Source: Tubiluchus corallicola (taxonomy: Eukaryota; Animalia; Priapulida). From it: a stretch of DNA of 64,000 nucleotides. The stretch spans positions 868,001 through 932,000 of the forward strand of contig JAQGDQ010000008.1 of NCBI GenBank assembly GCA_030141605.1, read 5' to 3'. Of this stretch, positions 2,801-26,570 are shown piece by piece (the stretch's first letter is position 1; each line of letters starts with the position of its first letter). Made by a program: the position numbers and the translations under genes. The notes under the pieces were generated by a model that saw only the letters and a list, made by a program, of their open reading frames with translations, was not told the origin of the DNA and searched no databases.

Positions 2801-5800
2801 GTTAGCTGTTCTGAATTCGGTAGTTTGCAAGAAAAGCAGTTGGGTTTGCTCAAGAGACATGTAAGTACTTGAGTTATTTTACACTTTTTCCATCATAACG
2901 TGGTTGAGACAAAGGAAATAGGAGAGCTTAATGGGGTACTTCATCATTCGTTGCTGTAGGACATCGTTTACAAGCCATTTCCCAAATATGTTAGAATTTT
3001 CAGAAGCAATGCAAGAGCAACAGTGCAAGATTAGGAAACTGCCCATTAATAGGATCTCAAAATAAACTGTGCTCAAAAACAATGCTATTTTAAATGCATT
3101 GTTTTTGATGCTATTTTATAAATACGTGAATTTCATAAATTGGCTAAAGTTCACAATTGTTCATGCAAGAAATTAGGCTTAGGCTTAGGCTTAGGATTAG
3201 GATTAGGGTTTGGGGTAGGGTTAGGGTTAAGGTTAGGGTTAGAGTTATGGTATTTAAATTGTGTGGAGAATTATAAACTCCTTCCCATAAATTTTATTGC
3301 AAGTGTTAATTAGAAATAAAAATAGATGGCTTAATAACGGATTATGAAATTTGAAATTGATTTAATTGAAATTTCGGGCAATATTATCGTGGGACTAAAC
3401 ATCACACTTATAAAATGACATATCTTTAAAAACAAAGCTAATTGTTTTTTTCAGTTTTGAAAGATTTGCCATCTTGTAGTTGTGATTGTTCGGTTACTTG
3501 AAACGTTTGATAATATGTGTATTGTTAATTAAATCAGTTTTAAATTCTACATTCACCTGTTAAGCCATCTATTTTTATTGTTATAAAAGTGCAAAAGCAC
3601 AACTTTGAATAAATACAACCACTAAATAATTACTTGTATTACATGTATTACTAACTACTGCATATTATCTTACTGCACTAAAAACATCAACGATTTCCAA
3701 AATTTTCAAGAATGAAAATGAACTTCCAGTAGATGCAATTCTGTTATTAAAGGAAAATTTTTCGTAAGAGTCGATGTTTTTAATTTTATGTTACATGTTT
3801 TCATTTCAAACAACATTAACATCAGTGATTCCAGAAGATGCCTGCCAGTTTTCATTCAACAATTTGGATGATTATTTATAAAGACCGTTCAACGATGCGA
3901 ATAAACTTGCTTTGTTATCATACAGATATATTTTGCTTGGATCAGTATGCAGTCATGTTTATCGAACGCGAAGATTTCTCATTTCTGCCATCTTCATGAG
4001 AGCAGGCTTGGCTACGTTATTAAATTTTGAATCACCGAGTCGCTCACTATAATCTAAAAATCTGGTCAATCATTGCCGATTGCTTGTAATGATTATTACT
4101 TCTAGGTTATTGCCACTTGTATGGCGATTCTGGTTTGTCTTGCGTAGTCGTCCAGGGAGGCATTAAATATGAATTAGTGGTAATTAGATGCTCAGTCCAT
4201 TATTTCCAGTTAATTAGAGCTTATGGTGAAGCTCGAATAATCTACATAAACAGTGTTAATTTTTGCCATGATCATGGGCAGTTTCATTGTAAACTTTTCT
4301 GTATACTTGTTAATTTCTTAATTGATGCATTTTTAGTTTGTTTGATTGTTATTTGTAAATACATTTTGTATGAGAATACTCATTTTTGTTGTGGTTTTAC
4401 TAGATCGCAGCCTCTTGGCGGCGGCTCATAAATGGGAGACGGTCCTCCTATGCAGGTATGGCAGGTATTGAGGACCAGGAACATGCAGCGGATATTCTTG
4501 CTTTGTGTGGTATGTACTCAGACTTTCCTAAAAGCGTGTAATAATATTAAATTTACTAACCAATAATATAGCCACCTTTAGAGATTAAACAAAGCATCAA
4601 GCTATACTCATAATCCAATTTTCAGTATATTATAGGCATATTGGGTACCAGATATGCAAATATGGGGTACCAAGTTTACCTAGTCCTTGTGTAAGTTATG
4701 ATCGGAAGTGCTTGCAGTGAAATGATCATTGCTGCTAATTCTGTGGCTACCATTTGAGTGCAGTTTCCTGGACCAGTTTACCATTATTACGATCCTTGTG
4801 AGTTAGTAGATGTCTTTCACTCAAAGAACCGAGTAGTCTTGCATTTAATGGAAATTCCTAAACTTGTCATGTATAAATGTTCACTAACATTACTGTCCGA
4901 TAATTCTTTTCTTCACTAAACAAAGCATGAAGCTTATAGTCATTTTACAATGTTAAATGTTATCTTACATTTCTGACAAAAACTTGAGGATCTACAGCTA
5001 TGTATTTTTAGTATTTTATTGTTATCGTCTTTTTCTGTAATTTAGTTTCTATTATATTTTTATCTAGCGGAATTGTATGACCAAGATGCAAGAAAGCTCC
5101 AACTTAAGTTGGTCAACTATGTAAGTTTTTCATTTACTTATAATGTGAATGTTTTTTATACAAACCGTCTCTAGCTTGATGCGTGATCAGTGGTACCAAA
5201 TGATATGATACTAGATAGAAAGGTGGAAATAGAGACTCAGATCCAGAGAAATAGAATTCTTGCAACTAATTTGCTAGCGATGGAATGTATCTATTAACAA
5301 CTTTTCTGATGAGGCTGTTGGTAACAGGGAAACAGTTTTCTGGTAGAAAATTCACAGATACATGTAAAAGGCCTTAGGGAAAAACTGGATTTATGCCAGC
5401 TGTTTTGCATCTAGGAATGTCCAGAATAAAACCTTGAGACCGATTGTTCCCAGTAAACTGTCTAATAAAAATATTATGTATAAAAATGAACATTGAGGTC
5501 TAAAAATGAAAATCAAACAATAATGATATTCTAAATAATAAATTTACAGATCATGTAGTACACAACGCCAAATGACAAATGACCAATGCCAAAAAAAATA
5601 AAAAGAAGCGATGTTACTCCAATACAATTTGTTCTCTGACTAATGCCTGTGCGTGGTAATGAGACAAACTTTTGCACCAATGCATGAACAATACTGTAAA
5701 CAAGAACTGACAAGACAAGCTCAAAACAATTCTAGGGACAAAAAAGAAAGTTAATGATTAAGCTCTGGTTGAAGTTTTTTATCAAAAGAGTTTCAAACAT

Positions 5801-8800
5801 GTGCAAATCAAAGTTACTGCTAGTAGATTCTAAAATTTTGAAGTATTAAGATGAGTCTGAACAGTGCTCATGGATTAATGAGTGTGGTGCTGATTTCAGC
5901 TGCCTACCAGTAGCCTTTGACCTACCCCTTTGCTCATATATACTAACTGTATATATGTGACTTGTTTGCGTTAAATTGTGCAATTCTAGCAGTTGATGCT
6001 CTAGAAAATTTATCATTTTGTAAGTTTCTGGGCTCCTGAGTCCAGATTGTGTGGTAACTCACAGAATAGTGGATCCCTACCGAGGTGTAAACAAATTGAT
6101 ATCTAATGGAATTCCCTTATCGTGCATATTTTATACTTTTCAGCTACAAAAGCACACCTCAGCTCAATGCGGCTTCCTGATGCTTGTAGCTGAAGACACC
6201 GGAACTCTTTTCTGTCAAGTTATCGGTGATAAAGTCATTGAAGAAGACATAAAATACCCTGTAAGTTTACCCTTGTTATCAGCATCAGCAGGTTTTGCTT
6301 ACCGTGCAATGACATCGATTACATTTTGCACAGTTGGGCATATATTTTATAAGATTAAATATTCCTGTGTTTTTATGTTTGGTTTTTATTGTTTCTGTGT
6401 GATGTTAGTGATTTATATTTAACAGTATTATTAAGTTGAAGGATCATTAAAAACTTTGAGCAGGATAACATATTCTTTAGTGGGGATCAGAAATCACATT
6501 GAAAATATTTTATTCTATATGGGATCATCCAGAAAAATCCCAGACCAACTCGTAGCCTTGTGCCATGCGTGCCAAACTGCATAAAAAATAAGAATAACAA
6601 ATTAAACTTTGTGCAAATTGCTTTTGCAGCCTTGCTAGTGTATAAATTGATTTTCTTCTTATAAAATATTTTATGATTGCAAGAATTTTGTAAGCAATGT
6701 AATAATTTCGTAATGCATGCAGTATAAAATGGACAGCTAATTTAGTAGTAACATTTCCTGGCATTATTTATCGTATGCTTGCTAGTAGCCGACATTTACA
6801 TGGTGTGAGCAAATATTGATTTGAAACTAGTCTGTGTGGAACGAGGAGACACACTGATTTTAAAAATGTGATTTTGCAAAGTATAACTTGTGTTAATGAA
6901 TATATTTCACACAATCTACATGTTTCTTGTACATGTTTTGGAAACTTTGCAAAAGATGATTGCTGATAATACACGCACTTGAGCAGCATGTGGATGAAAT
7001 TTGTTGGTGTGGTTGCACCATTGCAGCAGTGCATTGTGTGGGAAAGCAAAGCATGTTTCACAGCTTAACCATATTCAATTGTATATCTGTTAAATATAGA
7101 TTGGACAATGACCGGCTAACTGTATATATTTATTTACATCTACACAATGCTTTATCCTTTCTGTCTATTCCTTTGTTCATGTGAAATATCTTTTATATGA
7201 TCTAGATAATTTACTTTGAGTTAGAGATTTCTCAGTAGTTGCTTTGTGTTACGATAGCATCATAAAGCAACATTTGTATTGATCGGGCTTGTGTTTCTTT
7301 ATGTTGTAATTGTAGTGGAACGAATCTGTTTGCAGTGATTTTCATGTCTAGGGAAAGCGGTCTGTATCATCAACTTTCGTACTTTGATTCACGACGACAG
7401 TAGTCAATATGTGGGGTAGTGCATTTAGTCGCATCTGTGTGTGTGTTGTTGCTGTCAAATCAAAACAAATGTATCTATAATCACAAAACTTGGCATATGG
7501 ATAATTCTGGACAACGTCTGGAAATCCATTGCAGTTTACTTCAGAAAGTCAAAATTTAGGTCACAAGGGCAAAAAAATGTCAAATTAATACTAAATTTTT
7601 GCCTGCTGGGTGTTGTTTGTGGTTGTGGCTCTACACTTCTATTGAGTATGTTCTAGTATTTTTTGTATTTTTAGTGTTTTACGTCTAGCGTAAAACAGAA
7701 AGTATGTTAATGATGATTTCAAGTATTTTTATGAGAACATATTTGCAGTCGTACTCCAGTACTTTAACACTTGACTGTTATGACGGTGTTGCTTCAGTGC
7801 TAAAACAAACTGAGCTGCATGGCATGCTATTTAGAGGCCATTGCATGCGACACGGTTACGTGCGAAGCCCGCAGCTGCTTCTAGTACACTCTGCTCCTTA
7901 TTGTATTTCTGGAAGTGTATCAGTTATTGTACTGTGCTATTTTTCAGAGTCACTGTAACAGTTTCTCCTCTGTCCTTGACGACAAGAAGCCAATTTCTCT
8001 AGATGATATTTCTCAGGTAGTTTAATTTTTGTTAATTGTTTCCAAGTTTGGGTTTAAGTGCTGCAAATGTTTTTTGTGCTTATTCTTGAGATACTGGGAG
8101 TAGAATGTTGGGTGTCAGTCTTCTTGAAATATATCAAATGCACTGCTTATCAAACTTATCGAAAGAGAATGTATCGAAGATTGTAAAACCGATAAATTAG
8201 AGAACAGCTCATTGCATTATTGTAATTTACAAACTTTATAAATGAGTTAAATTTGTTTCGAAAATGCAAAAGTAAGTACGGTTAAACTAGAGGTTTTTTA
8301 AAATGAACAACAACGGTCGTATCATCCACTACTCTTAAGTTTTTTATTCATTTGCAAACATTTGAGAATTCATTTGAAATGACAAGCATTATTGTGAGTA
8401 ATAACTTGCTGCTTTTATTTGGTTTTGCAGCATTTAATTAATAGTATTGATTATCAAGAAGCAAACTGGAGATTTGCAATTTGAAAGTCCTTGTTCAGAG
8501 TTAGGCAAACTTTTTCCCCAGATGTCAATATGGAACACGCTGAGTTCTCAAATTCAAATAAATTTATTGGTATCTTTTTAAAGTTACAGTACAATTTAAA
8601 GTTATCATTACAAGTTTAAAGTTATCATTACAATTATGTGCTAGCAATTCTGGAATAATTTTGTAATGCTAGCAGGTCTGTTTCGGCAAAAAACAACTAA
8701 ATTTACTCAATAAAAATGTTATGTTCACTATAGTATAGCACTTGTTGTTAAGCTAAGACAATTTGAAATATACTTTAACATATTTTAATGACTTTGAAAC

Positions 8801-11800
8801 GTCATCCTGTGATGTTGTCATTTATTTCGTTCTAATCTTGTCACGTACTTTATTTTGTGCGAAAATTTTTAAATGTCTAGAACATAGTAGGTATAGCGTT
8901 CTAGAAAACATCCATCAGATGAACAAATGCAGATTTGGATTTAATTTGCTAAACTTGCTCATTTGCAGGAGTCTAGAAATGATATCAGCAGTTTGCTCGG
9001 ATTTGATGTTCACTCGATGCTGTGTGTGCCTGTCATTGAACCGGCCGAAGGGAGGGTCATCGCACTTGCTTGCGTTGTCAACAAAATAGGAGCTTCCCGG
9101 TAATTGTTGTTGATGCTGAGGAGCCTGTTCACGTGTTTGATGTGAATAAATTGGCACAATTGTTTAGTTTCTTTGTCAACGTAATTATTTCTAATGCTTA
9201 ATGGCAGAAAGCATTTGAAATAACACTGAACAGCAGTAGTAACTAAGGGCAGCTAGTTCTACTCTTTATCAGCTAATCTTGATAAGCATTGTTTTGATCG
9301 TTGCATTTTGTTTTCCTAACGTGTGGAAGGCACCAACATTTTTGCCTACACTGAAATGTGATGAATTGGTTGGGTAAATCAACATTTGTCACATATGTGA
9401 ACATTTTTCTCTGAAATACATAAAATGTTGAGTTATTGTTCTTAACATAAAAAAAAGTTTTATGATTTCGAATACATGCTTATAAGCCCATAAAAGATAA
9501 TCTCAGTTTGGACTGTGATTGGATTACAAACTAGTTACGATTTTAATGCAGTTAAACGTAATTAATATCGGCATTTATTTCATAAAATAAAACTTTGCTG
9601 AACAAGCTTTCAGCCGTTTAAAATAAATTTTTATAGGCTATCATGATAGTTTTGAATAAATCCAAACTGAACTATTAATAACTTGCACTGAATTGACATG
9701 AATAAAACATGAGTCATTCTCTCATGAACCTCTGTGGTGTAAGAATGTATCAACTAAAATTCAAGTCATCTTAGTGGACATTCTTTACAGGTTTACCGAA
9801 GACAATATAAAAGTTGTGCAAACTTGTTTCAAATATACAACTCCAGTATTGACCAGCACATTAGCCTTCCAGAAGGAACGGATGCTCAAAAATCAGACAC
9901 AGGTAGCTTAAATTAAATTAATTAACCCGGTCAGTGTCTCATTCTGTACAACATAAAAGCTTGTTTTCTCATATCTGTTATAATTTATTTACGCTTAACA
10001 TCTGAGAATTTTTTCTATTGTTTCAATGATGTCAATGAGTGTAACATAACACAGTATTGCAAAGAAAAATTGTGTTAATTTGATGAACGGGTTTGTGACA
10101 AATTTTTTCCTTTGCAATTTCAGACTTTGTTACACGTTGCGAAGAATTTATTCACGCATTTAGGTGAGTACAGCCTTAGTGCACCATGTGAAGAAAGCCT
10201 TTCCTTTCCCGTGTTTCATAGCGGACACATTGGGTTGCGCCTTCAGCATTCGCTTCACCATGACTCATCTAGCGGACTGGATTCGCTTACTCGGCGTCTG
10301 AGTATCATTCGCAAAAACACTCCTTTGATACACTCCACAACCGAAGATTTGAGCACAATTGAAGAGAGTGCTGAGAGTGCAAGGTCAAGCGTTGAATTCG
10401 ACGGAAAGTCATTCATCTGTGACTGTGAGGTTGAGCAAGAGATTAAAGATGTGCGACCAAAGAGCAAAAGCTTAGAAGAACGCAAACTGCCTCTGGTTGA
10501 GCAAGAGATTAAAGATGTGCGACCAAAGAGCAAAAGCTTAGAAGAACGCAAACTGCCTCTGGTTTCTGGTCCAGAATCATTACATCTCTTTTCAAAACCT
10601 CACGAACCAACAATGAAAGATTCAAAAGAAAAACAACCAGTGCTTCCCATTCAAACACTTTCAGAGCCAGAAACAAATGATTCAGAGATAAAACAGCCGT
10701 TGCTTAATTTTCCAAAACCATCTGAGCTAGAAATGAAAGAATCGGAAAAAAAAGAACCATTGCTTTCTCTTCCAGAAACTTCTGACCTGGAAACAAAAGA
10801 CTTGGGAAAAAAAGAACCACTGTTTTCCTTTACAAAACCTTCCAAGCCAGAAATGAAAGATTCAGAGACAAAAGAACAATTGCTTTTCTTTCCAGAACCA
10901 TCCAAGTCGGAAGTGAAAGAGTCAGAGACAAAAGAACCATTGTTTCCTATTTCAAAACCTTCCGAGTCAGAAACAGAGAACTCAGAATCAAAAAATCCCT
11001 TGTTTCCGGTTCAAGAAGCTTCTGAGCCGGAAATAAAAGACTCGGAGACAAGAATGAAGAATTTCTTTGACCTAGATGATGATCAGTCTAGTGGCGAAGA
11101 TGATTGGTGTTTAAGTGAACCGTCCATGGAAATGATTCCTGTGTTACCTCCAGTTAAGAAAACGGGTGGAGAAACAAAAAGGACTGCTACTGCCCGCTCA
11201 CCTGTAATTAGCAGCTACAGTTATACTCCTCGAATTGAAAATTTTGCTCCACCTCCTGCAAGGCCACCCGTCGAGTTCGACATAGAAGATACCATTGTGC
11301 CTGAAGTGCTGAACAAGCCCGTGCGGAAGAGGTTCAGGATATTGCCACATATTGATACTAATCCAGATCTTCCTCCGAAACTTCTCCATGAAGATGATGC
11401 TGATGCTGACCTGGCCATTCAGCAACGTGTTTTCATCAACTCGCAAATTACAAAACAAAACAAGGTAGCTACTAGAGTTACTGGAAGTCCAGAGGCAGGA
11501 ACGAGTAAACCACATGCAATCATTGGTCGAATTGAACCATATCACCCACTGCCCAGTCCAAAACGGAAAGCTCGTGCAGAAACCGTGGCCAAAAGTCCAT
11601 CAGATAATAATGCACCTAGTAAACCAAAAAGTGCTAAACATTTGATCGAGAAAGACAGTGCTGGGAGTTACGGAGTGGACAATGCTAGCGTCAACCGAAT
11701 TTTTGATCATGTCAGGTGGAAAGGAGAGATGTCCACTCTGACTGGAAGAATAAGTGCTGCCGAAAGAATAAAAGATGATCTTGAAAAATCACTCAAAGCT

Positions 11801-14800
11801 AGCAGCGACTCTGACTCTGAAAATACGCCAACTGAAAAAGAACCCATGACTGTCGTTTGCAAAAATGAAGCTGCAGAGTTAGCTGCTGGTACTGCTTCTT
11901 CCTGTAGGGATGCTCCCATTATTTCTAGTTTAACTAGTGATAACCTCCCACACAGTGACTCATTTTTACAATTTTGTAATGACACATTCAGTGATGACTC
12001 TTTCGAAACTGCTGTAAGTCAAATTACAGCTGATCATTCGCTAGAGAATGATGCGATAGAATCTAGTGTAGTCAATAAGATTGTTGTGAATGTTGCTGAA
12101 GATGAAGCTGTTGCTACAACTGCTGCAACTCAAATTACAGCTGATCATTCGCTAGAGAATGATGTGACAGAAACTAGTGTAGTCAATAAGATTGTTGTGA
12201 ATGTCGCTGAAGGCGAAGCTGCTGTATCTGGATCTTTTGAAACATTTTTTCCACCAGATGAGAAACACACAAAGTCTCTCGATGCTGCTGAAAGTTCGAG
12301 AATGCTATGCGTAAACCAAGGAATTAAACTTTCTCATGCTAGCATTGAAGAGCTTATAGTTACGCAGGTACCTACTAGACAGAGGATATTAAGCCGAGGA
12401 TTACTAAAAAGCACTGAATTTTCAACTGAGTTTCTTGAAAGGTTATCAAGAATACGCAGCTCTACTGAGACGTCGATGAAGAGATCCAGCTCTGGCTTTG
12501 TCATCCCTCCTTTGAAGTGTTGGCCTTTGCATGTTGTGTATCCCGGCATCATGTTCCGCAGCATTGAAAATAAATGTCAGCAATTCCAGTGCATTCCTGA
12601 ATGTTTTCCTGTTAACGGTATCTTCCTTTAGTCCTCTATTAATGTTTGAAATGATTGATCGTTTTTTGTGATTTCGTTATTGTCAAAGAGAAATCAGCAC
12701 AATTTTTTTCTTTTTGAAGTTAGCCTTTCTCATGTTTCTCTACTTTGGTAGACCATAACTTTTCGAAATCGGAAAATAAACCCAATGGTTAAAAACACTT
12801 AAGGAAACAAAGTAGGCTTTAAGATTGATGAATCAAATGATGTGAAATTTTAAGGTCTTGCAATTGGTTTACTGACTGTGCTCAGTGTTTTCTCTGAGGT
12901 AATAACTAGCAGTTGTTTTTACTAACAAATATGTTTAATTAAATATATTTCATTTAATATCTGTTGAGTTTGCGCAACTAACAAATTAATTGTTAAACAG
13001 TTTCTGTATTATTGTTATTTGTGTACTAATTTTCATTTTAAATAACCATAATAATTCATTGTTGGTCGTGCTTTTTCACCATTGCTTTTTAACTACATTC
13101 ATGTACTAATTGTTATAATAAACTATAATTCTGAAGATGTTAGAATTTTTCACTTTTATTTAATTGAAACAAGTATTTTTGTTGCTGTCATACAGCGGCT
13201 GAACTGTAAAGTGCTATACTTTTTGTATATTTGCTAACAGATTAAATTTTCAATTCATTTCATTCAGTTTCCCTCTCTAGTTAAGAAATGCTGATTTTTA
13301 AATTTCATGATTATTTTAACTTTTCGTTTGCCGTACTTTCTTGAAAGTTTCATGTTTTTTTGTTTTTTTAGAGGATGTGACTTTGCTATTGAAGGAGATA
13401 ATGCAGGAAGCTCGACATCTGACTCAAGCTGAAAGGTAGACCTGGTTGTTCTTGAAATACATGTACTTCATTCTGAGAGGTTGTTTTTAAAATATTTAGA
13501 ATGTTTATTTGACACCCGCCATACAGAATAACGAGTATAGGAATAGATAATGAAAGCAATACAATGGGGTTATAAATAGTTAAGTTATGTATGCACTAAG
13601 CAGCATTTGGAATGCATGCTTGTAAATATGGTTCTTACAGGTGCACTAAACTTGTAAAGAACATGCGATCTTTACACATGTACTTAACATATAATTAATG
13701 GCCATTCCTGACAGTTGTACTAAATATGTAAAGGACACAGACCTACAGGTGTACTAAACGTAAAAAAGTACAATTCTTACAGGTGTACTAACTGTGTAAA
13801 AGACATACAATTGGTATTTAATCTATGAAGAATATATAATTCTTACAGGTGTAAGAATACTTAACGTGTAAGGAACGTGTAGTTCTTACAGGTGCATTTA
13901 ACTTATAAGAAACATGCAATCTTTACAGGTGTATTTAACATGTAAAGAACATGCAATTGTTACAAGTATAACTATGCGAAATTCATACAAGTGTAGTTAG
14001 GCTGTTATTAATGTGAAACCGTAAGGTGATGTTCTCACTGTACTATCATGTGCAATTCTTGCAGGTGCTCACTGTTCCTGTTGGATAGAGACCAGAATGA
14101 ATTGGTGGCTAAAGTTTTTGATGGAGACATTGCCAGTCAAAGTCCATCCAGAACAGACGTGAGTGCTGAAGAAAAAATGTTTTCAAAAATTACTCCTGCT
14201 AAACAGAGAGAAATGCAAAGGAGGCAGGAAATGGAGAATGAGGTAATGTATAATGTATAAATGTCGTATTTTCGAGCTTGTTAATAAGTACTTAGAATAT
14301 ATAGTGAGTGCTCACCTAACGTCTCCCCCGTTTAGTGACATTTCGTTTTAACGATGCAACACGTCTCATTTTTTCACTTAAAAATGCATGTTTCGTCTTA
14401 ATGGCAATTTTCTTGACTTGTTCAATGCAATTTTTGAACGTAATTTGAAATGTTGAAACACTACATGCTGCGTTATTCGGTTCAAGAGTTTTTGTAGTAA
14501 CAAAAAACTATGTACAATATTTATGTTGTGCTAAATGCTAAAGACTGCATCTCTATTAAGCAGAGATCTACTTGGGACTCACAGTACCTGACAGCCTGCA
14601 ATTTTTTTAAACTAAGCCTGCCTACATCCTGTTGCTATAGCAACTAATATCAGTCTAGATGAAACTTTTCTAAGGCATAGTTAGCCCAACTCTTCTATAG
14701 TGAGGCTCAACTTTAACATAACCATGTTCACGTTAGGGATGTGCATTATTTGCACAAAAAAGGTGGATTCACAGTTGCGTGTGTTGTTGAGATACCACTT

Positions 14801-17800
14801 GAAAGGGAAGCAGCTAAGAGTTGATGAGAAAAATAAGTGGTTTCAAGGCAAGTGGAAAAAAAGTTAAGGAACAAGTGATGCAAACATCGTAGCAGCTTAA
14901 TAAACGCGCATCACTGCAGCGATTTAGCACAATGAAGCCCACCCAAGATTTTCCACATCGCTAGAAAAAGCATCACTTTTAATTCAGATTTTTTATTGTA
15001 ATCATTTTATCTGCTGTAGAAGCTAAGCTTTTGTAAGCTAGTGACAGCTATCTTGTTGGCGATCTTGAAACATGCTACTGTATTGGGTAATTTGATTGGG
15101 CCCCACATTCAAAATTGATCACCTTTGTGTGTTCTATGATTGTGCAATGCACCGTGCTACTGGGATCTTAACTGGGTGTAGAAGGAGCAGTGACACAGAA
15201 AATGAACTTTGACTGTTACAATGCTGACAGATTTTCCGTTTTCTGTGCTCACTTATTCGTAGTTTTGTAAATGTAGTTTTTTGCCCTTACTTAATAAAAT
15301 CTAATTTGGCTGCTCGAAATCTGTCTTAAAAGGTGCAGTTAGTAATGGCAGCTAAGGCTAAAGTAATGTTGTGTGATTGGACAGCACTTACGGTATATAC
15401 TATCATGAATGAATTTATGCAGAGATTGGAAACTATGGCCAGCTTATCATTACAATTTTTTTCATATTACCTGCCAACAGCATAATTATGTCCAAGTTTC
15501 AGCTAACCCCGTTATTTTTAGGGCTACTAGATTAAAACTTTCAGAGAGGGGTTACCATATGCTCAAGTGTTTAAATACAGAAAAAGACATTCATTTAGCT
15601 AAACAGCAGTTTGTATACCTGTAGATACATCTATCCTTTTTTGTTTTAAAAATGCTTGTTAGTGCTTTCTTTGAATGGCTCTAAAATAGTTTATCATCAT
15701 TTTGACAAGTAAATAAGGTATCCTATGATACCAACATATAAGTGCTTAAAAAATATCTCTGGAGTTGCACAATATTCCAAGCTACAGGTATGAATTTCAT
15801 ATCAATTTAAGTAGTATACCCTATGCGAAAAATTCAAGTACTGTAAATTCTAGGACTCCCCATTTAACGACCTTTCATTTTAGCGACACTGAACATTTGA
15901 AACCTTTTTCTCACTTAACGACTCACTACCTGAAATTGTCTTAAAGTCGTTTTATGCAGGGCTTGGCTTTCACTACACAGAAACACTGGGACCTGTATAC
16001 ATACAGGCTTCAAGAAACCACTATCAAGGCTAGCTAGATATTGGTAAGAAAGATAGGTGGTTTCAAGCAAACAGAAAAAAATTAATCAGTAGAAATATGA
16101 ATACAGTCTAATAAAACGTTTGATGTATATGATTTAAGCGGCATTGATTTTTGCTTCTGGAACGTATCTCAATTCTTTTACATTACTTTCTGTGGAAGTC
16201 TTGCTTTTGTTTAACGACATTTCACTTAAGGTCTCATTTTGCTGGAACGCATTAGCGTCGTTAAGCGAGGACTTACTGTATGTGGAATCTGCTGTAAATT
16301 TGTTTTGTGAAGTAAAGTTTAGTAAACTTTAAAGTTAAAGTTGACATAAAGTTAACCTTACATAATCCTTTAACAACTTGTTTTAACATTCAGGTTCGCA
16401 TACCAGCAAATCAGGGTATAGCTGGACATGTGGCGACCACTGGTCAGCTATTGAACATACGTGATGCTTATTCGCATCCACTTTTCTACAGGGGTGTAGA
16501 CGATTCTACAGGATTCAAAACTAGGTACTTTTTGCTTTTATGGTTAAACGGCACCTATGGCGAATCTGCAGAAGTCACCTTAAAGTATTTTCACTTGAAC
16601 TAGACATTGTGGCAGGACCAGAATCCGACTCATTATCAAGGCGGCTAACCTTCAATATAAAACACTAAATGACAGAAGTGTCTCAGCCACATTTGGATGT
16701 GAGTACTATCTCCTTCAATGAGGTAAACAAGCAAAATCCGTATGCAGAATGAAGCCTTCTTGAACAAGTATTGAATTTAGTGGTCATCCATCCATTCACT
16801 GACCAGCCTGGCACTTATTTAACTTAGGTGGCAAAGCACACATTGTGACCATTCGGGTATTTGTTGCCCCAATGTCAGTAAATGAAATAGTGACATACCA
16901 GCAAAAGCTACAGTTATTATACATGTACAGCATGTTATGTTAGGCAATGCTGAAAAATTTTGGAGATGACTCGATTGCTTTGCGAAATTTAGCACTTCTG
17001 TTTCCTTTAGATGTTGTTAGTAGTTTCCAATACTTTGTTAAAGTAATAATAATGTCAAAATTTATGTCAGCTCAAAAAAATTACACTATTTATCTTTGTT
17101 TTAGGAATATTTTGTGCTTTCCAATAAGAGATGAAAAAGGTATGAATTTATTCATTTCTGATAAATACTGATTATGCCTGGAAGTTAGTGTTTTAGTATC
17201 TACAGGTCGGAAAAGCGCTTCTAAACACTAATTATGTCCAATATTAATCAGTTTCTACACATGAATAAGAAATTGGAAAAATAAACCTATTGATTTTTTG
17301 CTTGTAAACACAAGTTTCACCTCCATGTTTAGCAACTGGTGACGTAAAATCGAGTGGAGCTTTAACTATATCTTATTATGTAAAAGAACAAATGCATGTA
17401 GTTGAATGAGTGATAAGCACTGGCACTTAACTACAAAATTAATCGAGTACTTTCAAGTGCTTTGTACACAGCTACTTGGCTGTGAAGTTTGATCAAGTAC
17501 TTTTAAGTACTTGTAAGCAAATGCTAAGTATTGATCTAAGGTTTGACAGTTCACCTATAAAAATAGAAAGCTTAGTGTCACAATTGCTTAAAAAATTTTG
17601 AGAAACATAGTATACTCAAATTATAAAGTTTTTATAGCTCTTAAAAGTCTTTCAAAACTGAAATTTAATTCTTTCCTTTTCTGTGAAGAACATCGTTCAT
17701 CTGTTCTGTTGTCAGATCCTAAAGGAATGATTGTCAGTGTGACTCTCATCCAAACTGAATATTACAGTAGTTTACTGCTTAATAAAACTGTTGCCAGTGT

Positions 17801-20800
17801 GTGTATTTGGCAAAGTACAATATGTAAATGTTGCTCCCTAACTAATACTATGACAATTAAACAAAGGGCAGTCACCTCCCTGACATGCCTTCCAAATGAC
17901 TTAAGTGCACAAGTCATTCAAGTGCTTAGCATCTGTGGAGAGAGAGAGCAGTTGTGACGAAACAATTGACTAACTTTTAGGGTGACTTTGATTAAGTAGA
18001 GGTGAATCTAAGGAACGGCCCTTAAATTTCAACTGTATCTTAAAAAGTAGACAAAGCACTATTTAATATTTCATTTTGTTTTTGTTTTTCTAGCTTTTTA
18101 CTGAAAAATGTGTTCTTGTCAAATGATGCATTGGTTTTGTAGTCGAATTTTCTTAACTAAGTGGTTCTAAAGTGCGACTGGTTTTATTATCCTTGGTTTC
18201 ATTAAGTAGCATCTACTATATACCTTTTAAATTTGAGTACTTGCATAACACAATTCAAAAATACTGCAAACTTTTGACCATTTTCTTTTTGTTTTAGGAG
18301 TGATAGGAATTGCAGAATTGTGCAATAAGATCAATGGTGCTTATTTTACACAGTTTGATGAGGAGATAGCAACTGCATTCTCTGTTTACTGTGGACTCAG
18401 CATCGTACATGTATGGTTTTTTCATTATAGTTTCTCAGCAAAATATTCCATGCTAACACATGTCGTTAGTTGTTTTTTAAAGTAAAAACCAACTTTTAAA
18501 GACTCCGGCATAATAGCTGCAAAGTATTATAATTAGTTTACAGAGAGATTAACATGTTAATTTAATCCAGTAATGTAACTGATTAGCAACTCAAGAATTT
18601 AAAATAAATTAATTCATTAATCGCTTTTCTGAATTAGAAAATTTATTTGCAAAGCTTGAAATTTACCATGACTATGACTGTTTTAATATTGCCTCATTTC
18701 ATACTAATTTTTTTATCTTTAAATTACCCTATACTATCCTACACTGCTAAATGTATTTAAAATAAAAAAACTGAGAATTGAAAACTTGGGTTTTACATTT
18801 CTTGCTAATGGTTACATCATCATCAGATTACCAATATTCAAGTCGGAGAATTCACTTGTAATGACGTCGTAGTGTAGTGGTTACCATTACAGACTGAAAG
18901 TCATATAGTTTAGGATTCATACCATCGTGTATAATCTCAGATTTTTTCTGTAAATTTAATGTATGCCATTTATCTAGGAAGTTTTATCAGTAAGACAGTT
19001 AATTAACAACCTAACTTGTCACCATTAATTAACGAAAATGTGACACAATTTCTTTGATTTTTCAGTCTCTAATGTACAGAAAAGTTTGGGAAGCACAACA
19101 TCGGAGCCACTTGGCTAATGAATTGATGATGTACCATATGAAGGTTGGTGTGTCGTGCTTAAATTGTAGTAATAAAAGTTTCAGTATAAAAGTAATGTAA
19201 CCATTAGTAAGTAAGCAATTTATTTAACTATTACATGTACTATTGTAATAACAGCTATCTTGCAAACAGTCATTTCTAAAAGCCAAGTCATATGAGGATA
19301 GAAGAGGACGATGTATTTCTAGATTCCATTGTGAATCCTGTGGGATTGTTGGGAAAGCTCTCGGACACATATGCTATTGTTGTTCCATAACTGGCTATTA
19401 TGATTTTACAACTAACGTGTCTATGTCTACACTTCATCATTAACCTTATTGTTGTTAGGCAGTAGTAAACAACATGCGTGGAATGTTTATCTCATCGAGG
19501 GTTTTTATACATATTATTTTACTTAGCTCTGCACAGGTTTTATACTTTGTCATGTGACTACAGGTTACCGAACCGGAATACAGGAGACTTACTACCTGTG
19601 ATGTCAAACATCCGGAAGAATATGGAGAAATGTTCACGAAGTTTTGCTTTCTGCCACGGTCCCTTTCAACAGAGGACAGTTTATCGGTAAGGTGGAAATC
19701 TTGTCAAACCCTACAGAAGGGTTTCTGTTCTACTTTTGCTTATCCAGAATTCTTAATTTTAGGTGTTGTTTACAGTGCAATTAAATATTTTACTGTGTCT
19801 GAGAAATTTTTAGTGATTACATGAATATGTTCATTTAAGATATTTATTGTTTCATACACTATTTGCAGTACATTTACAAAACATTTTCACAAAATACTAA
19901 TTCTCACAGTTTAAAGTTCAATATACAATGAATCAATATGGTGAAACAAACATTAAAACAAATGAAAGCTGTTGTTCTGAAAATTTCCTAGGGTGCTTAT
20001 ACACTAGATTTTCTACATTTTCAGGCAATGTTAAGCATGTTTGATGACATGGGTTTCATTCGGAGGTGGCGAATAGAGAGAGAAACATTGGCTCGATTTA
20101 TAATCATGGTGAAAAAAGGATACCGGGACGTACCGTATCATAACTGGTTTCATGCTTTCGCTGTTACGCACTTTTGTTACTTATTGTACAAGAATCTCCC
20201 TTTGCTAGACCACCTCACGTAAGTACTGTGTGTAGTTGTTCAATAATTATTATTATAAACTGATGTATGCTATTATTATTGTATGCTATTTAAACCAAAT
20301 TAACTAATCTTGTTATCATCTTGGAAACAACATTTGAAATTTTACATGGTTTCTGACCACATTTGAGATTTTTGGTCCTGACAATGAAAGTCCTTTTTTC
20401 TTTTTTAGGGAAATGGAAGTATTTGCCCTGTTTGTTGCATGCATGTGTCATGATTTAGATCACAGAGGTACTAACAACTCATTTCAGGTAAAGTAATGAG
20501 TTTTTTCTAAAATATTTCATTCTCATTTATCTTAAGGTGTGGTCAAAATGTGCCATGCTGATGACCTAACTTTGAAAGTTTCTTTCGATAAATTGAATGT
20601 GTTATCTCACATCAATTTCTTTCTCAGTTAAAAATATTGATTTCTTTCTTTAGCAATTGTATTATACTAAACCACTAATGTTTGTCCTAAAATTCACGAA
20701 GCTCTGTACGTGTTTCATTGACTACATTCTGCCCTTTGAGAAGATTTGTGTATCTGTCCTCTATATGAAAGTTGTCTTTGTTAACTGTTACATCTTGCCA

Positions 20801-23800
20801 CTGTTGATACTATAAACAGAGAGTGTGTGTGAATGTAAACAATCAAAAGTAGTATAAACTTTGTTAAGAAAGCAAGACAAACAGCCATAATAAAATATGT
20901 CAATGATGTCATTGGGTATTCATGTTTCAGGTTACGTCCAAGTCCATACTGGCTGCTCTGTACAGTTCTGAAGGATCGGTAATGGAACGACACCACTTTT
21001 CACAAGCCATGTGCATCATTAATATGCAAGGTTCAGACATATTTGAAAACTTATCAAGCAAGGTAAGAAATTCCTCATCTTTGGAATTGTGGCATCTGCT
21101 TGTGTAAAAATAAAGTGCAGTCACTCAAAAGTTATCCTTTTGTAGGATCAAACTACACTTTCGGTTTTTTGTTAGTGTCTTGTCACATTCCTGTTGGCTT
21201 ACTTTGCATAAATGTGTTTATATATGATTCTAGATTTACAGCGTGGCATCTGGCTACATGTGCATTTGATCTACCACAATTATAATAAAACAACACTATT
21301 GTCAAACATTGTCAAATTTCGGTGAAAAAACCTCTGACAAAGCATATAGTAATCCACAATTCTAATATTATTTGCCAGAGTAGGGATTTTCGGCATGTAT
21401 ACGTATGTCATGCATGAAAACTGTTTTAATGAGTTATAATCATTATTGTAGCATGTTTTATTTATTTATCTGTATAGGAGTATCAACAAGTTCTGGACCT
21501 GATGCGAGATATTATTCTTGCTACTGATTTATCTCATCATCTAGTTATTATGCCTGAGTTGGAAGCCATGGCCAAATGTAAACTGCATATTTATTTATTT
21601 TCTCTAAGCTAAGTGTGTAGTAATTATTTTAGGCCTATAGTAGGCCTGTAGTTCATAACATTTTAAAATATTTGAATTAAGTGTTTCTGATAAAAGCTAC
21701 GTCGTAATTTCACACGCATCTCTATTATCTTATTATATTCAACAATGTATTTTTATAGGTGGATACCAAGCTAATAACCCAAAGCATCACAAGTTGTTAC
21801 TGTGTCTTCTGATGACATCTTGTGATCTCTCTGACCAAACCAAGAGTTGGAGTTCAACAAAGAAAATAGCAGTAAGCAACAGTCTATTTGTATTGCTGTT
21901 TTTCCAGAAATAGGTTGATAATAAGTACATTGTTGGATGTCATAATCACTGTTTTGAAGATTTAGATTGTCTTACGTAGAAATTACGTGTGCTGTTTGTG
22001 TAACATGCAAAGAATCAGATTTTTTGTCTTTTGTCCTGTCAAAACAGTCACAGCACTGTATCTTTTTTTCAGTGGCATGTATTCCTTAAGTGTCTGTCAG
22101 GTGTTTTAGACGTATTTTATATACATCAGTTTATGCTGATTTCAAGTAGAATGTTATTACAACTGATGTAACATCCCATAAGTTGTGCACAAAGTTTTAT
22201 CTCTATATCTAAATGAAAAAGTCTGTGTTTTCAACTGAATTTAAAAATCTCATTTGTTCCAGGAACAGATTTACCACGAGTTTTTCAGTCAAGGTGACCT
22301 TGAGAAAGCAATGGGTAATAAGCCACTAGACATGATGGATCGTGAGAAAGCATGCATACCTCAACTACAAATCAATTTTCTGCAACACATTGCTATTCCG
22401 CTTTACGGGTACATTTAGTTTATCATAAATTGATTGATGAAATGGGGTTTTTCTTAGACTTTGTTTGCTTACTTGCTGTTTGTATTGGTAAGCTTTTACT
22501 TTCATTGAAATACAAATTTCTTTTCAGCTTGCAGCAGGTTAGTGATGGGAATCTATTATAGTTTTATCGATGAAAAATTTTACATCAATTTTCGCATCTA
22601 TACACTTTTATCGCATGTATTATTACATGAATTATCGCATTGATAACCATAGGAAATCGATACAATCTGAGTACCATCATAGAAACCAAATTTCCTGTTT
22701 TTGTGCCATAGCAATACTGAGAAATAAACATAATGCACACTACTATCTTGCAAAATAACACAGCATTCGCATCAGCAATTGGGTGGTCATATTTTTCCCA
22801 TGCTGTGATTACTGTTTGCACTCCGCAGTTGGTCATTTCATCTGGTTTACATAAATTTTTGCTTTCACAAGTTTCATTGTGTCGAAGTACGTTGATCATT
22901 TCTTAATCAACAAAGTGTATTAAACTGTGAAGTACAAATTTTGCAGAACATGCTACAAATTCCTGAATAGCACAACTGTGCTGAAAACGCACATGGAGAA
23001 AGTAAAAAACCATGCTTTGACAATAACAGCTTTCATAATTTTTGTATGTAATAGTAAATTTATTCAACTCAATAAAGTTTCATATAATGGTTTAAGTGTT
23101 AGTATACAATATACATGTAAAAGGAATAAAGAAGAAATGTAAATTTGCAGCCAATTTTTATTTTATTCAAATTTGTTGTATGCAAAAAAATGTGAAACAA
23201 ATTGTATGCACGTGGAAAATTTATTCACTGATGTATAACTGTATGTGTTACATGCAAGTTTGTACATATATATCTTGTAAATGTATGCCTAAACATCTGT
23301 AAACTTTCCTAAGCTATGTAGTTGAAATAAACTTACTAAAAGGTATTAAAGTTTATTAAATCATTTTTTATCTGAAATTGTGGCATCGAAATTGATTAGC
23401 ATCAGTCATCAGAAAAGACATTTTCTTGCTAATAATGACTGCGTTGCTGTTGATGTAAGTTGTAATACTTTCAGAAAACAAGAAAGTGAAAATAGTAGCC
23501 ATTTTCTCTATCAGTAAGAGACCTATAAAAATCTTGAACATCTGACCCTTTGATACTACATTAATATTATAATACTAATACTAATACTAATACTAATGCT
23601 AATACTAATACTAATACTAGAGGTAATAAATTAGTGTAAAGACTACAAAGACAATGTGTATTTTGGAAATTGAAATCATATTAAATGAATTTCTGTTGTC
23701 GATTATCAAAATCGCTTTATAAGATACTGACAAAAAGGTGCTCTTTATCGTTTATCGAAATCTTATCACAATTTTTGTATCGATTCCCGTCACTGCAGCA

Positions 23801-25999: not shown

Positions 26000-26570
26000 G
26001 CGCAAGAGTTTTCACCAAGGTAAAAGTATGGCATAAGAGTTTACACCAAGGTAAAAGTACGGCATAAAAGTTTACACCAAGATAAAAGTATGGCATAAGA
26101 GTTTACACCAAGGTAAAAGTGTCGCATAAGAGTTTACACCAAGGTAAAAGTGTCGCATAAGAGTTTACACCAAGATAAAAGTGTCGCATAAGAGTTTACA
26201 CCAAGGTAAAAGTGTCGCATAAGAGTTTACACCAAGGTAAAAGTGTCGCATAAGAGTTTACACCAAGGTAAAAGTATGGCATAAGAGTTTACACCAAGGT
26301 AAAAGTGTGGCATAAGAGTTTACACCAAGGTAAAAGTGTCGCATAAGAGTTTACACCAAGGTAAAAGTGTCGCATAAGAGTTTACACCAAGATAAAAGTG
26401 TCGCATAAGAGTTTACACCAAGGTAAAAGTATGGCATAAGAGTTTACACCAAGGTAAAAGTGTCGCATAAGAGTTTACACCAAGGTAAAAGTGTCGCATA
26501 AGAGTTTACACCAAGGTAAAAGTGTCGCATAAGAGTTTACACCAAGATAAGTGTGGCATAAGACCAAGGT
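26000..26570. repeat. 31-bp minisatellite, about 18 copies (cataagagtttacaccaaggtaaaagtgtcg)
   Basis: Exact 31-nt periodicity (e.g. gtttacacca at 26101 and 26132) with few variant positions (gtgtcg/gtatgg, aagg/aaga). Confidence 0.97.

Follow-up and report, generated by a model that had tools for sequence, protein, structure and literature searches.

Phosphodiesterase 2 (PDE2) is described in the available text of PMC13095499 as a dimeric enzyme in which the GAF-A domain mediates dimerization and GAF-B binds cyclic GMP (cGMP), stimulating hydrolysis of cyclic AMP (cAMP); a proposed route to activation includes a twist of its first linker helix (PMC6392808, in the portion available). Very long optional exons are reported from giant ankyrins (PMC5135030) and from Big tau with its exon 4a (PMC12896622), where, as far as the accessible parts of these sources go, one such exon is disordered and Ser/Glu-rich and its position and composition are conserved more than its sequence. 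Here, we analyzed a 64,000-nt stretch of the genome of the priapulid Tubiluchus corallicola (contig JAQGDQ010000008.1, positions 868,001 to 932,000; "the window"), in which a 40-nt exon of a PDE2 gene is followed, beyond its splice donor, by an open reading frame (ORF) of 822 codons. We consider it about two-thirds probable that this ORF is a giant PDE2 exon, made by use of an alternative 5′ splice site, with the catalytic domain kept.

Vertebrate PDE2A resembles the window PDE2 in having GAF-A, GAF-B, and catalytic domains and the same linker sequence at the junction; it differs in that its known variation, three splice variants in the accessible text of PMC13095499, lies at the N-terminus. 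The window insert has 23.5% Ser plus Glu and 51.7% Ser, Glu, Thr, and Asp together with Lys and Pro, compared with ~25% and >55% given for the ankyrin long exons in the portion of PMC5135030 available. Giant ankyrins and Big tau are cytoskeletal scaffolds, whereas the host here is an allosteric enzyme whose regulatory path the insert would split; the PDE2 extension also differs from both in being made, as predicted, by a distal 5′ donor on an existing exon. A further parallel is intronic polyadenylation with a composite terminal exon (PMC5928244, available in part), in which a donor is likewise ignored and the frame enters the intron; there the product is truncated, whereas the PDE2 homologs described below splice back.

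A long open frame continues a PDE2 exon

The 40-nt exon (10124..10163, + strand) is bordered by CAG upstream and by TTAG|GTGAGT at its 3′ end, and the 822 codons in frame with it beyond the donor are free of stops up to a TAG at 12629..12631, coordinates that a previous sequence-only reading of this DNA had right. That reading had also called this the longest ORF of the window, which it is (850 aa stop to stop, from 10079), and had put the runner-up at 207 aa, where we find 218 aa. Base composition predicts 50.5 stops over the ORF (probability of none, 2e-23), the longest frames in shuffled sequence reached 207 aa (1000 mononucleotide shuffles) and 245 aa (1000 order-2 Markov shuffles), and the other five reading frames contain 19 to 89 stops; chance is thus excluded. 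Beyond the other 19 modeled PDE2 donors, read-through extends for only 1 to 53 codons.

The composition of the ORF is coding-like. G+C content (GC) reaches 47% over the 300 nt directly past the donor and 42% over the ORF as a whole, while the upstream intron has 29% and the sequence beyond the stop 27%, and the first codon position is high in G and low in T, resembling the PDE2 exons. The first in-frame ATG is only at codon 164, and GC climbs at the exon rather than at this ATG, so the coding unit begins with the exon and not at a start of its own. Three tandem arrays lie inside: an exact 66-nt duplication (10429..10564, 22 aa repeated 2.1 times), eight diverged 60-nt units of 20 aa (10586..11065) through which the frame is kept, and a 111-nt duplication of 37 aa (12007..12221). 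All three periods are divisible by three, against only 4 of the 12 found elsewhere in the window. The ORF truly continues the 40-nt exon in frame, and is neither a transposon nor a gene of its own.

The encoded tail is acidic (net charge −36; Asp plus Glu, 17%), Ser/Glu/Pro-rich, and predicted to be disordered, in agreement with the sequence-only reading; an AlphaFold2 model from the single sequence (mean predicted local distance difference test score, pLDDT, 34.6) is uninformative beyond fitting disorder. A Pfam scan of the window gave no transposon, reverse transcriptase, or viral match to the ORF, and tblastn against phage records and comparison with viral and metagenome contigs, done without a eukaryotic repeat library, gave no viral match, which bears out the earlier statement that transposase and reverse transcriptase motifs are absent. 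No whole-ORF homolog was found in the protein database (0 of 7,986 candidates in a word search with the whole ORF), the ESM Atlas yielded no usable match for the whole ORF and one of 0.77, below lead level, for residues 400-520, and Rfam had no match in window positions 9000-14500. Short motifs to which the sequence-only reading had attached meaning occur about as often as expected by chance: there are two PKA-type sites versus 0.8 in shuffles (p 0.21; the claim had been of PKA/PKG-type sites), and one motif resembling a nuclear localization signal versus 0.9 (p 0.57).

The host gene and its short form

Exons between 4458 and 22408 (+ strand) together give an open PDE2 model of 686 aa that tiles the Priapulus and vertebrate proteins in order. 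Six modeled exons at 4458..9902 encode GAF-A together with the greater part of the linker helix, the modeled N-terminus being provisional. The 40-nt exon, which matches Priapulus and human PDE2A and is contained in a spliced contig, adds 13 residues and a G at the end of the helix linking GAF-A to GAF-B, and is the common start of the short form and of the proposed long form. The next exon (13372..13435) carries the first residues of the Pfam GAF-B domain, and the downstream exons (14065..22408) encode GAF-B, the second linker, and the catalytic domain and have an open frame in the model, the last C-terminal exons lying outside it. The model is 73.6% identical to Priapulus caudatus PDE2, with which it forms a sister pair (100/100) in a 19-row tree built without arthropods or other PDE families, so that the placement nearest to Priapulus holds among 18 others, and is 61-62% identical to gar, lizard, and frog PDE2A. 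The 120 matches listed for a catalytic-exon query are all PDE2-type, and the best PDB matches of the Priapulus model are PDE2A. By exon tiling and tree, the host gene is a PDE2 ortholog, as the sequence-only reading had held; cGMP-stimulated hydrolysis of both cAMP and cGMP is a family trait that the enzyme would be predicted to share.

The short form is real: a contig from a second data set (X2, a 14-Mb run that is RNA by our guess, ~3% divergent in exons) splices 9902 to 10124..10163, then to 13372 and 14065, with the ORF removed as an intron. This GT..AG joint skips 3208 nt from the proximal donor TAG|GTGAGT (10164..10169), and the junction at 10163 corresponds to L407|D408 of human PDE2A.

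Some further features of the gene deserve mention. The GAF-B exon at 14065-14242 (+) has two in-frame candidate donors, GAC|GTGAGT at 14158, which gives the usual loop length, and GAG|GTAATG at 14242, which adds 28 charged residues. In a scallop (P0179) and a chiton (P0186), the PDE2 second linker-helix exon exists in two tandem versions, likely mutually exclusive; in the window, only a single copy was located (19066-19143). The Priapulus caudatus PDE2 model is incomplete, lacking the second linker-helix exon and both termini, and is silent on a long form there.

Molluscan PDE2 proteins carry inserts at the same site

A search with Priapulus GAF-A plus linker gave 534 matches, and among the best 120 of these 534 were seven long PDE2 proteins of 1355-1643 aa, all with a PDEase domain, from mussel, three oysters, two scallops, and chiton. 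In all seven, NLFTHL|GE is read as in the window, an acidic stretch of 442-708 residues follows, and the PDE2 frame is taken up again at DLT[KT]LLREIM, leading into GAF-B and the catalytic domain; position 1 of the Pfam GAF domain is the first residue after the insert. With cluster members added, the insert occurs in 39 of the 190 PDE2 proteins compared that hold both anchors. These are molluscan and not independent of one another; mussels, oysters, scallops, and chiton are the four lineages represented, by 10 species in all. All 39 splice back into GAF-B, and proteins consisting of GAF-A plus a tail only were absent among the sequences compared, as were inserts of >100 aa at this site in vertebrate, amphioxus, and hemichordate PDE2.

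Short PDE2 forms are also present in those species. One full long form of oyster (P0225) requires 4,926 nt and is contained in one 5,456-nt Logan contig, which indicates a transcript spliced from the distal donor to the exon of GAF-B. Left unspliced, the oyster frames open in the small exon and end 10, 20, and 41 codons beyond the distal donor, an anatomy like that of the window. The mollusc long forms (for example XP_076070343.1 of Mytilus galloprovincialis, XP_034300944.1 of Crassostrea gigas, XP_021362109.1 of Mizuhopecten, and XP_064609581.1 of Liolophura) thus share with the window an identical donor read-through into hundreds of acidic, disordered residues, with partial motif similarity, and in molluscs short and long forms come from one gene. 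They differ in insert length (442-708 versus 818 aa), in being spiralian rather than ecdysozoan, and in that their distal splice is annotated, whereas ours is predicted. They are already in databases as automated annotations, unremarked, and are known as such models only, several labeled "uncharacterized"; a literature search covering titles and the starts of abstracts, with supplements and most subscription papers outside its reach, found no description of this PDE2 insert.

In composition, the window insert matches those of the molluscs. Asp plus Glu make up 12-20% of the mollusc inserts (17% in the window), and net charge runs from −11 to −65 (−36 in the window). A profile built from mussel, scallop, and chiton inserts, over their first 150 residues, matches residues 417-498 of the window ORF protein (82 residues) at 12.0 bits, a score equaled by none of 5000 shuffles. 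The aligned block follows I.Q/KQ..[LV]A..[LV]T[GS], then P..SP.K; in the window (11372..11617) it takes the form I.Q/KQ..[LV]A..[LV]TG, followed by P..SP.K and a second SP. For the 22 residues that follow GE, comparison with two scallops and the mussel gave ranks 1, 1, and 3 of 794, and comparison with oysters and chiton gave ranks of 152-337; the shared N-proximal block is absent from oyster inserts. Judged by these comparisons, the window insert is a same-site and partly similar counterpart of the mollusc insert. A common origin is likely, though not proven, and the 82-residue match suggests an old protostome exon. Common ancestry would place the origin of the exon in early protostomes.

A candidate distal donor would restore the PDE2 frame

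The ORF contains 41 phase-1 GT sites, 32 of which would join the exon at 13372 without a stop. The best score among these 32 belongs to ACG|GTATCT at 12617 (12618..12623; 5.0 bits), 4 codons ahead of the TAG that ends the unspliced frame. Joining 12617 to 13372 yields an open 1,504-aa model in which the predicted extension (10164..12617) contributes an insert of 818 aa. The sole phase-1 site that scores higher, 11903, would create a TAG at the junction. We infer from these features that 12617 is used as a donor in this species.

In the proposed arrangement, short mRNA splices at 10163, and long mRNA is predicted to skip this donor and splice 2,454 bases later at 12617. The long form would thereby gain an insert of 818 residues, acidic and disordered, after the linker helix and ahead of GAF-B, with the cGMP-binding and catalytic domains kept.

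Several observations weigh against this reading. The 12617 donor is weak, its 5.0 bits lying below the 5.3-10.3 of the 21 training donors (scored in sample; 1.7-9.6 when each is left out, apart from one boundary later corrected) and barely above the 4.8 of the runner-up at 11888. The one small RNA-like run of this species, X2, yielded the short form only and no junction of 12617 with 13372; it has no cover at 10640-13295, which is not evidence of absence. Selection on the protein was not detected: five of the seven listed single-nucleotide polymorphisms in the ORF change an amino acid (none creates a stop), giving no sign of purifying selection, and the ratio of nonsynonymous to synonymous differences among the repeat units (pN/pS) is 0.69 versus a neutral 0.74. 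Among the comparison species, Priapulus caudatus (incomplete model), Lingula, and Lineus yielded no long form, the current Magallana gigas RefSeq PDE2 isoforms listed are all short (896-936 aa), and most mollusc long forms are automated models. The resemblance between inserts is also limited. The shared block was picked after weak BLAST matches (E 0.17 and 0.25), and of the single-lineage profiles only that of mussel finds it (3 of 5000 shuffles as good), those of scallop, chiton, and oyster failing to do so. The C-terminal end of the window insert is unlike the mollusc ends (ranks 46-769 of 789), the whole-insert profile fails (−17.4 bits), and neither the conserved C-proximal block of the molluscs (S.SEP, LNYAF, IIVED; 23 of 1000 shuffles as good) nor their end motif was found in the window insert, so that we do not class it as matching the mollusc insert in full.

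Possible alternative products of the locus

The sequence-only reading had proposed that the donor is ignored and that intronic polyadenylation creates a composite terminal exon, giving a protein of GAF-A, linker, and 822-aa tail that lacks the catalytic domain and acts as a dominant negative or scaffold. Such exons are common in human cells according to the available text of PMC5928244, and a truncated dominant negative would be in keeping with dimerization of PDE2 through GAF-A and with the disruption of PDE11A dimers by isolated GAF-B (both in the accessible part of PMC13095499). The weakness of the 12617 donor and the dissimilar C-terminus of the insert also favor this product, as do AATAAA signals at 12775 and 13117, the latter with a U-rich stretch behind it. 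These signals, to which the sequence-only reading gave weight, are nevertheless at background density (two in 740 nt, where the rate in other introns is 1.28 over that length; shuffle P 0.13), and three more occur inside the ORF. Furthermore, none of the 39 insert-bearing homologs ends in the insert, and a stop just beyond an in-frame donor, here 4 codons away, is what an internal exon would be expected to show and is seen in oysters. A product ending at the stop without GAF-B and the catalytic domain is thus probably wrong as the account of this locus. We regard it as the main rival, though an unlikely one; even with an exon that was ancestrally internal, the locus could now yield chiefly this product, or could make it alongside the giant form.

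An improbable alternative is that the ORF belongs to a first exon, with a promoter in or just before it, so that translation from an internal Met and splicing at 12617 yield insert, GAF-B, and catalytic domain without GAF-A. Eight Crassostrea virginica models (P0233-P0240, 1036-1111 aa) do begin inside the insert and run into GAF-B and the catalytic domain, and PDE families often vary their N-termini (PMC13095499, in the text available). Against this, two accessions among these models (XP_022322472 and XP_022322473) recur in version.2 with 1606 aa, GAF-A included, the window frame stays free of stops and rich in GC over the 150 codons upstream of its first ATG, back to the exon, and the residues immediately after GE resemble the mussel and scallop inserts.

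Least probable of all is a decaying or nonfunctional ORF, or part of a multicopy element, lying in the intron by accident: although the lack of detectable purifying selection, the lack of a whole-ORF homolog, and a low-depth 1-nt gap at 12093 (within the 111-nt repeat) in a contig of data set X1 would fit it, it is opposed by the 822 codons in frame with the exon, the three frame-preserving arrays, the absence of stops among the seven polymorphisms, the absence of gaps in a 1,514-nt X1 contig, the same-site mollusc inserts, and the lack of a mobile-element match.

Predicted structure and function of the long form

In an AlphaFold2 model of the mussel long form, GAF-A, GAF-B, and the catalytic domain are folded (catalytic domain versus human PDE2A: Z 42, root-mean-square deviation 2.8 Å), and the insert has pLDDT <50, with a helix hinted at in the shared block. 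The domain arrangement of the model is unlike that of PDE2A (19.9 Å to 3IBJ; predicted template modeling score 0.43), and the end of the linker, residues 170-191, also has pLDDT <50. The model thus does not establish that GAF-B assembles correctly across the insert.

Because the insert sits where the linker helix meets GAF-B, on the presumed path by which cGMP opens the catalytic sites, the long form may combine anchoring with an altered cGMP response. Its most likely function would be that of a switchable tether and tuning arm. Anchoring would run through short conserved motifs, namely an amphipathic helix and phosphosites of the S-P-x-K type, which we take to be kinase sites. The long form would be expected to show altered cGMP activation and to occur in a subset of tissues.

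Surroundings of the PDE2 gene

In X1, a data set of unspecified kind with no spliced joints among those shown, contig depth is 26.9 at 10535-12048, 69.3 at 12239-12855, and 8.9 at 13191-13872. Either a multicopy stretch or the end of a 3′-biased transcript would fit the rise at 12239-12855; since parts of a gene cannot be ranked by contig depth, we did not use it as evidence. PDE2 introns contain a degenerate telomere-like array at 3173-3251, in which TTAGGC grades into TTAGGG, and a high-copy dispersed repeat at ~15900-16280 and 14326-14358, where X1 depth reaches ~1,100 in one bin. A large gene with RCC1 repeats (Pfam) lies tail to tail with PDE2 at 27617-63129 (− strand), and some of its segments resemble HERC2, with a HECT C-terminus. 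Between the two genes, a 31-nt unit is repeated 18 times at 26004-26563 (95% match).

Implications for PDE2 signaling

A broader proposal, which we put forward tentatively and hold to be a little less probable than its negation, is that giant PDE2 is protostome-wide. An optional exon would have been kept in Ecdysozoa and Spiralia, lineages that diverged >500 million years ago, and is absent from the deuterostome proteins compared. What it would supply, at the hinge between cGMP binding and catalysis, is a disordered arm bearing proline-directed phosphosites and a conserved helix. Splicing would then switch the anchoring of the enzyme as well as its cGMP/cAMP cross-talk, and where the distal donor is left unused this stretch may in addition give a partner that is catalytically dead.

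PDE2 is presented as the main point of cGMP-to-cAMP cross-talk in the available text of PMC13095499, where the variants described are N-terminal only. An optional insert of several hundred residues between the linker helix and GAF-B would be a natural experiment on the allosteric path, and since both forms are annotated in oysters and mussels, long PDE2 is testable there. Short priapulid gene models may miss the exon. The logic of the pathway would be unchanged by long PDE2; what would be extended is the giant-exon theme of ankyrin and tau, to a signaling enzyme.

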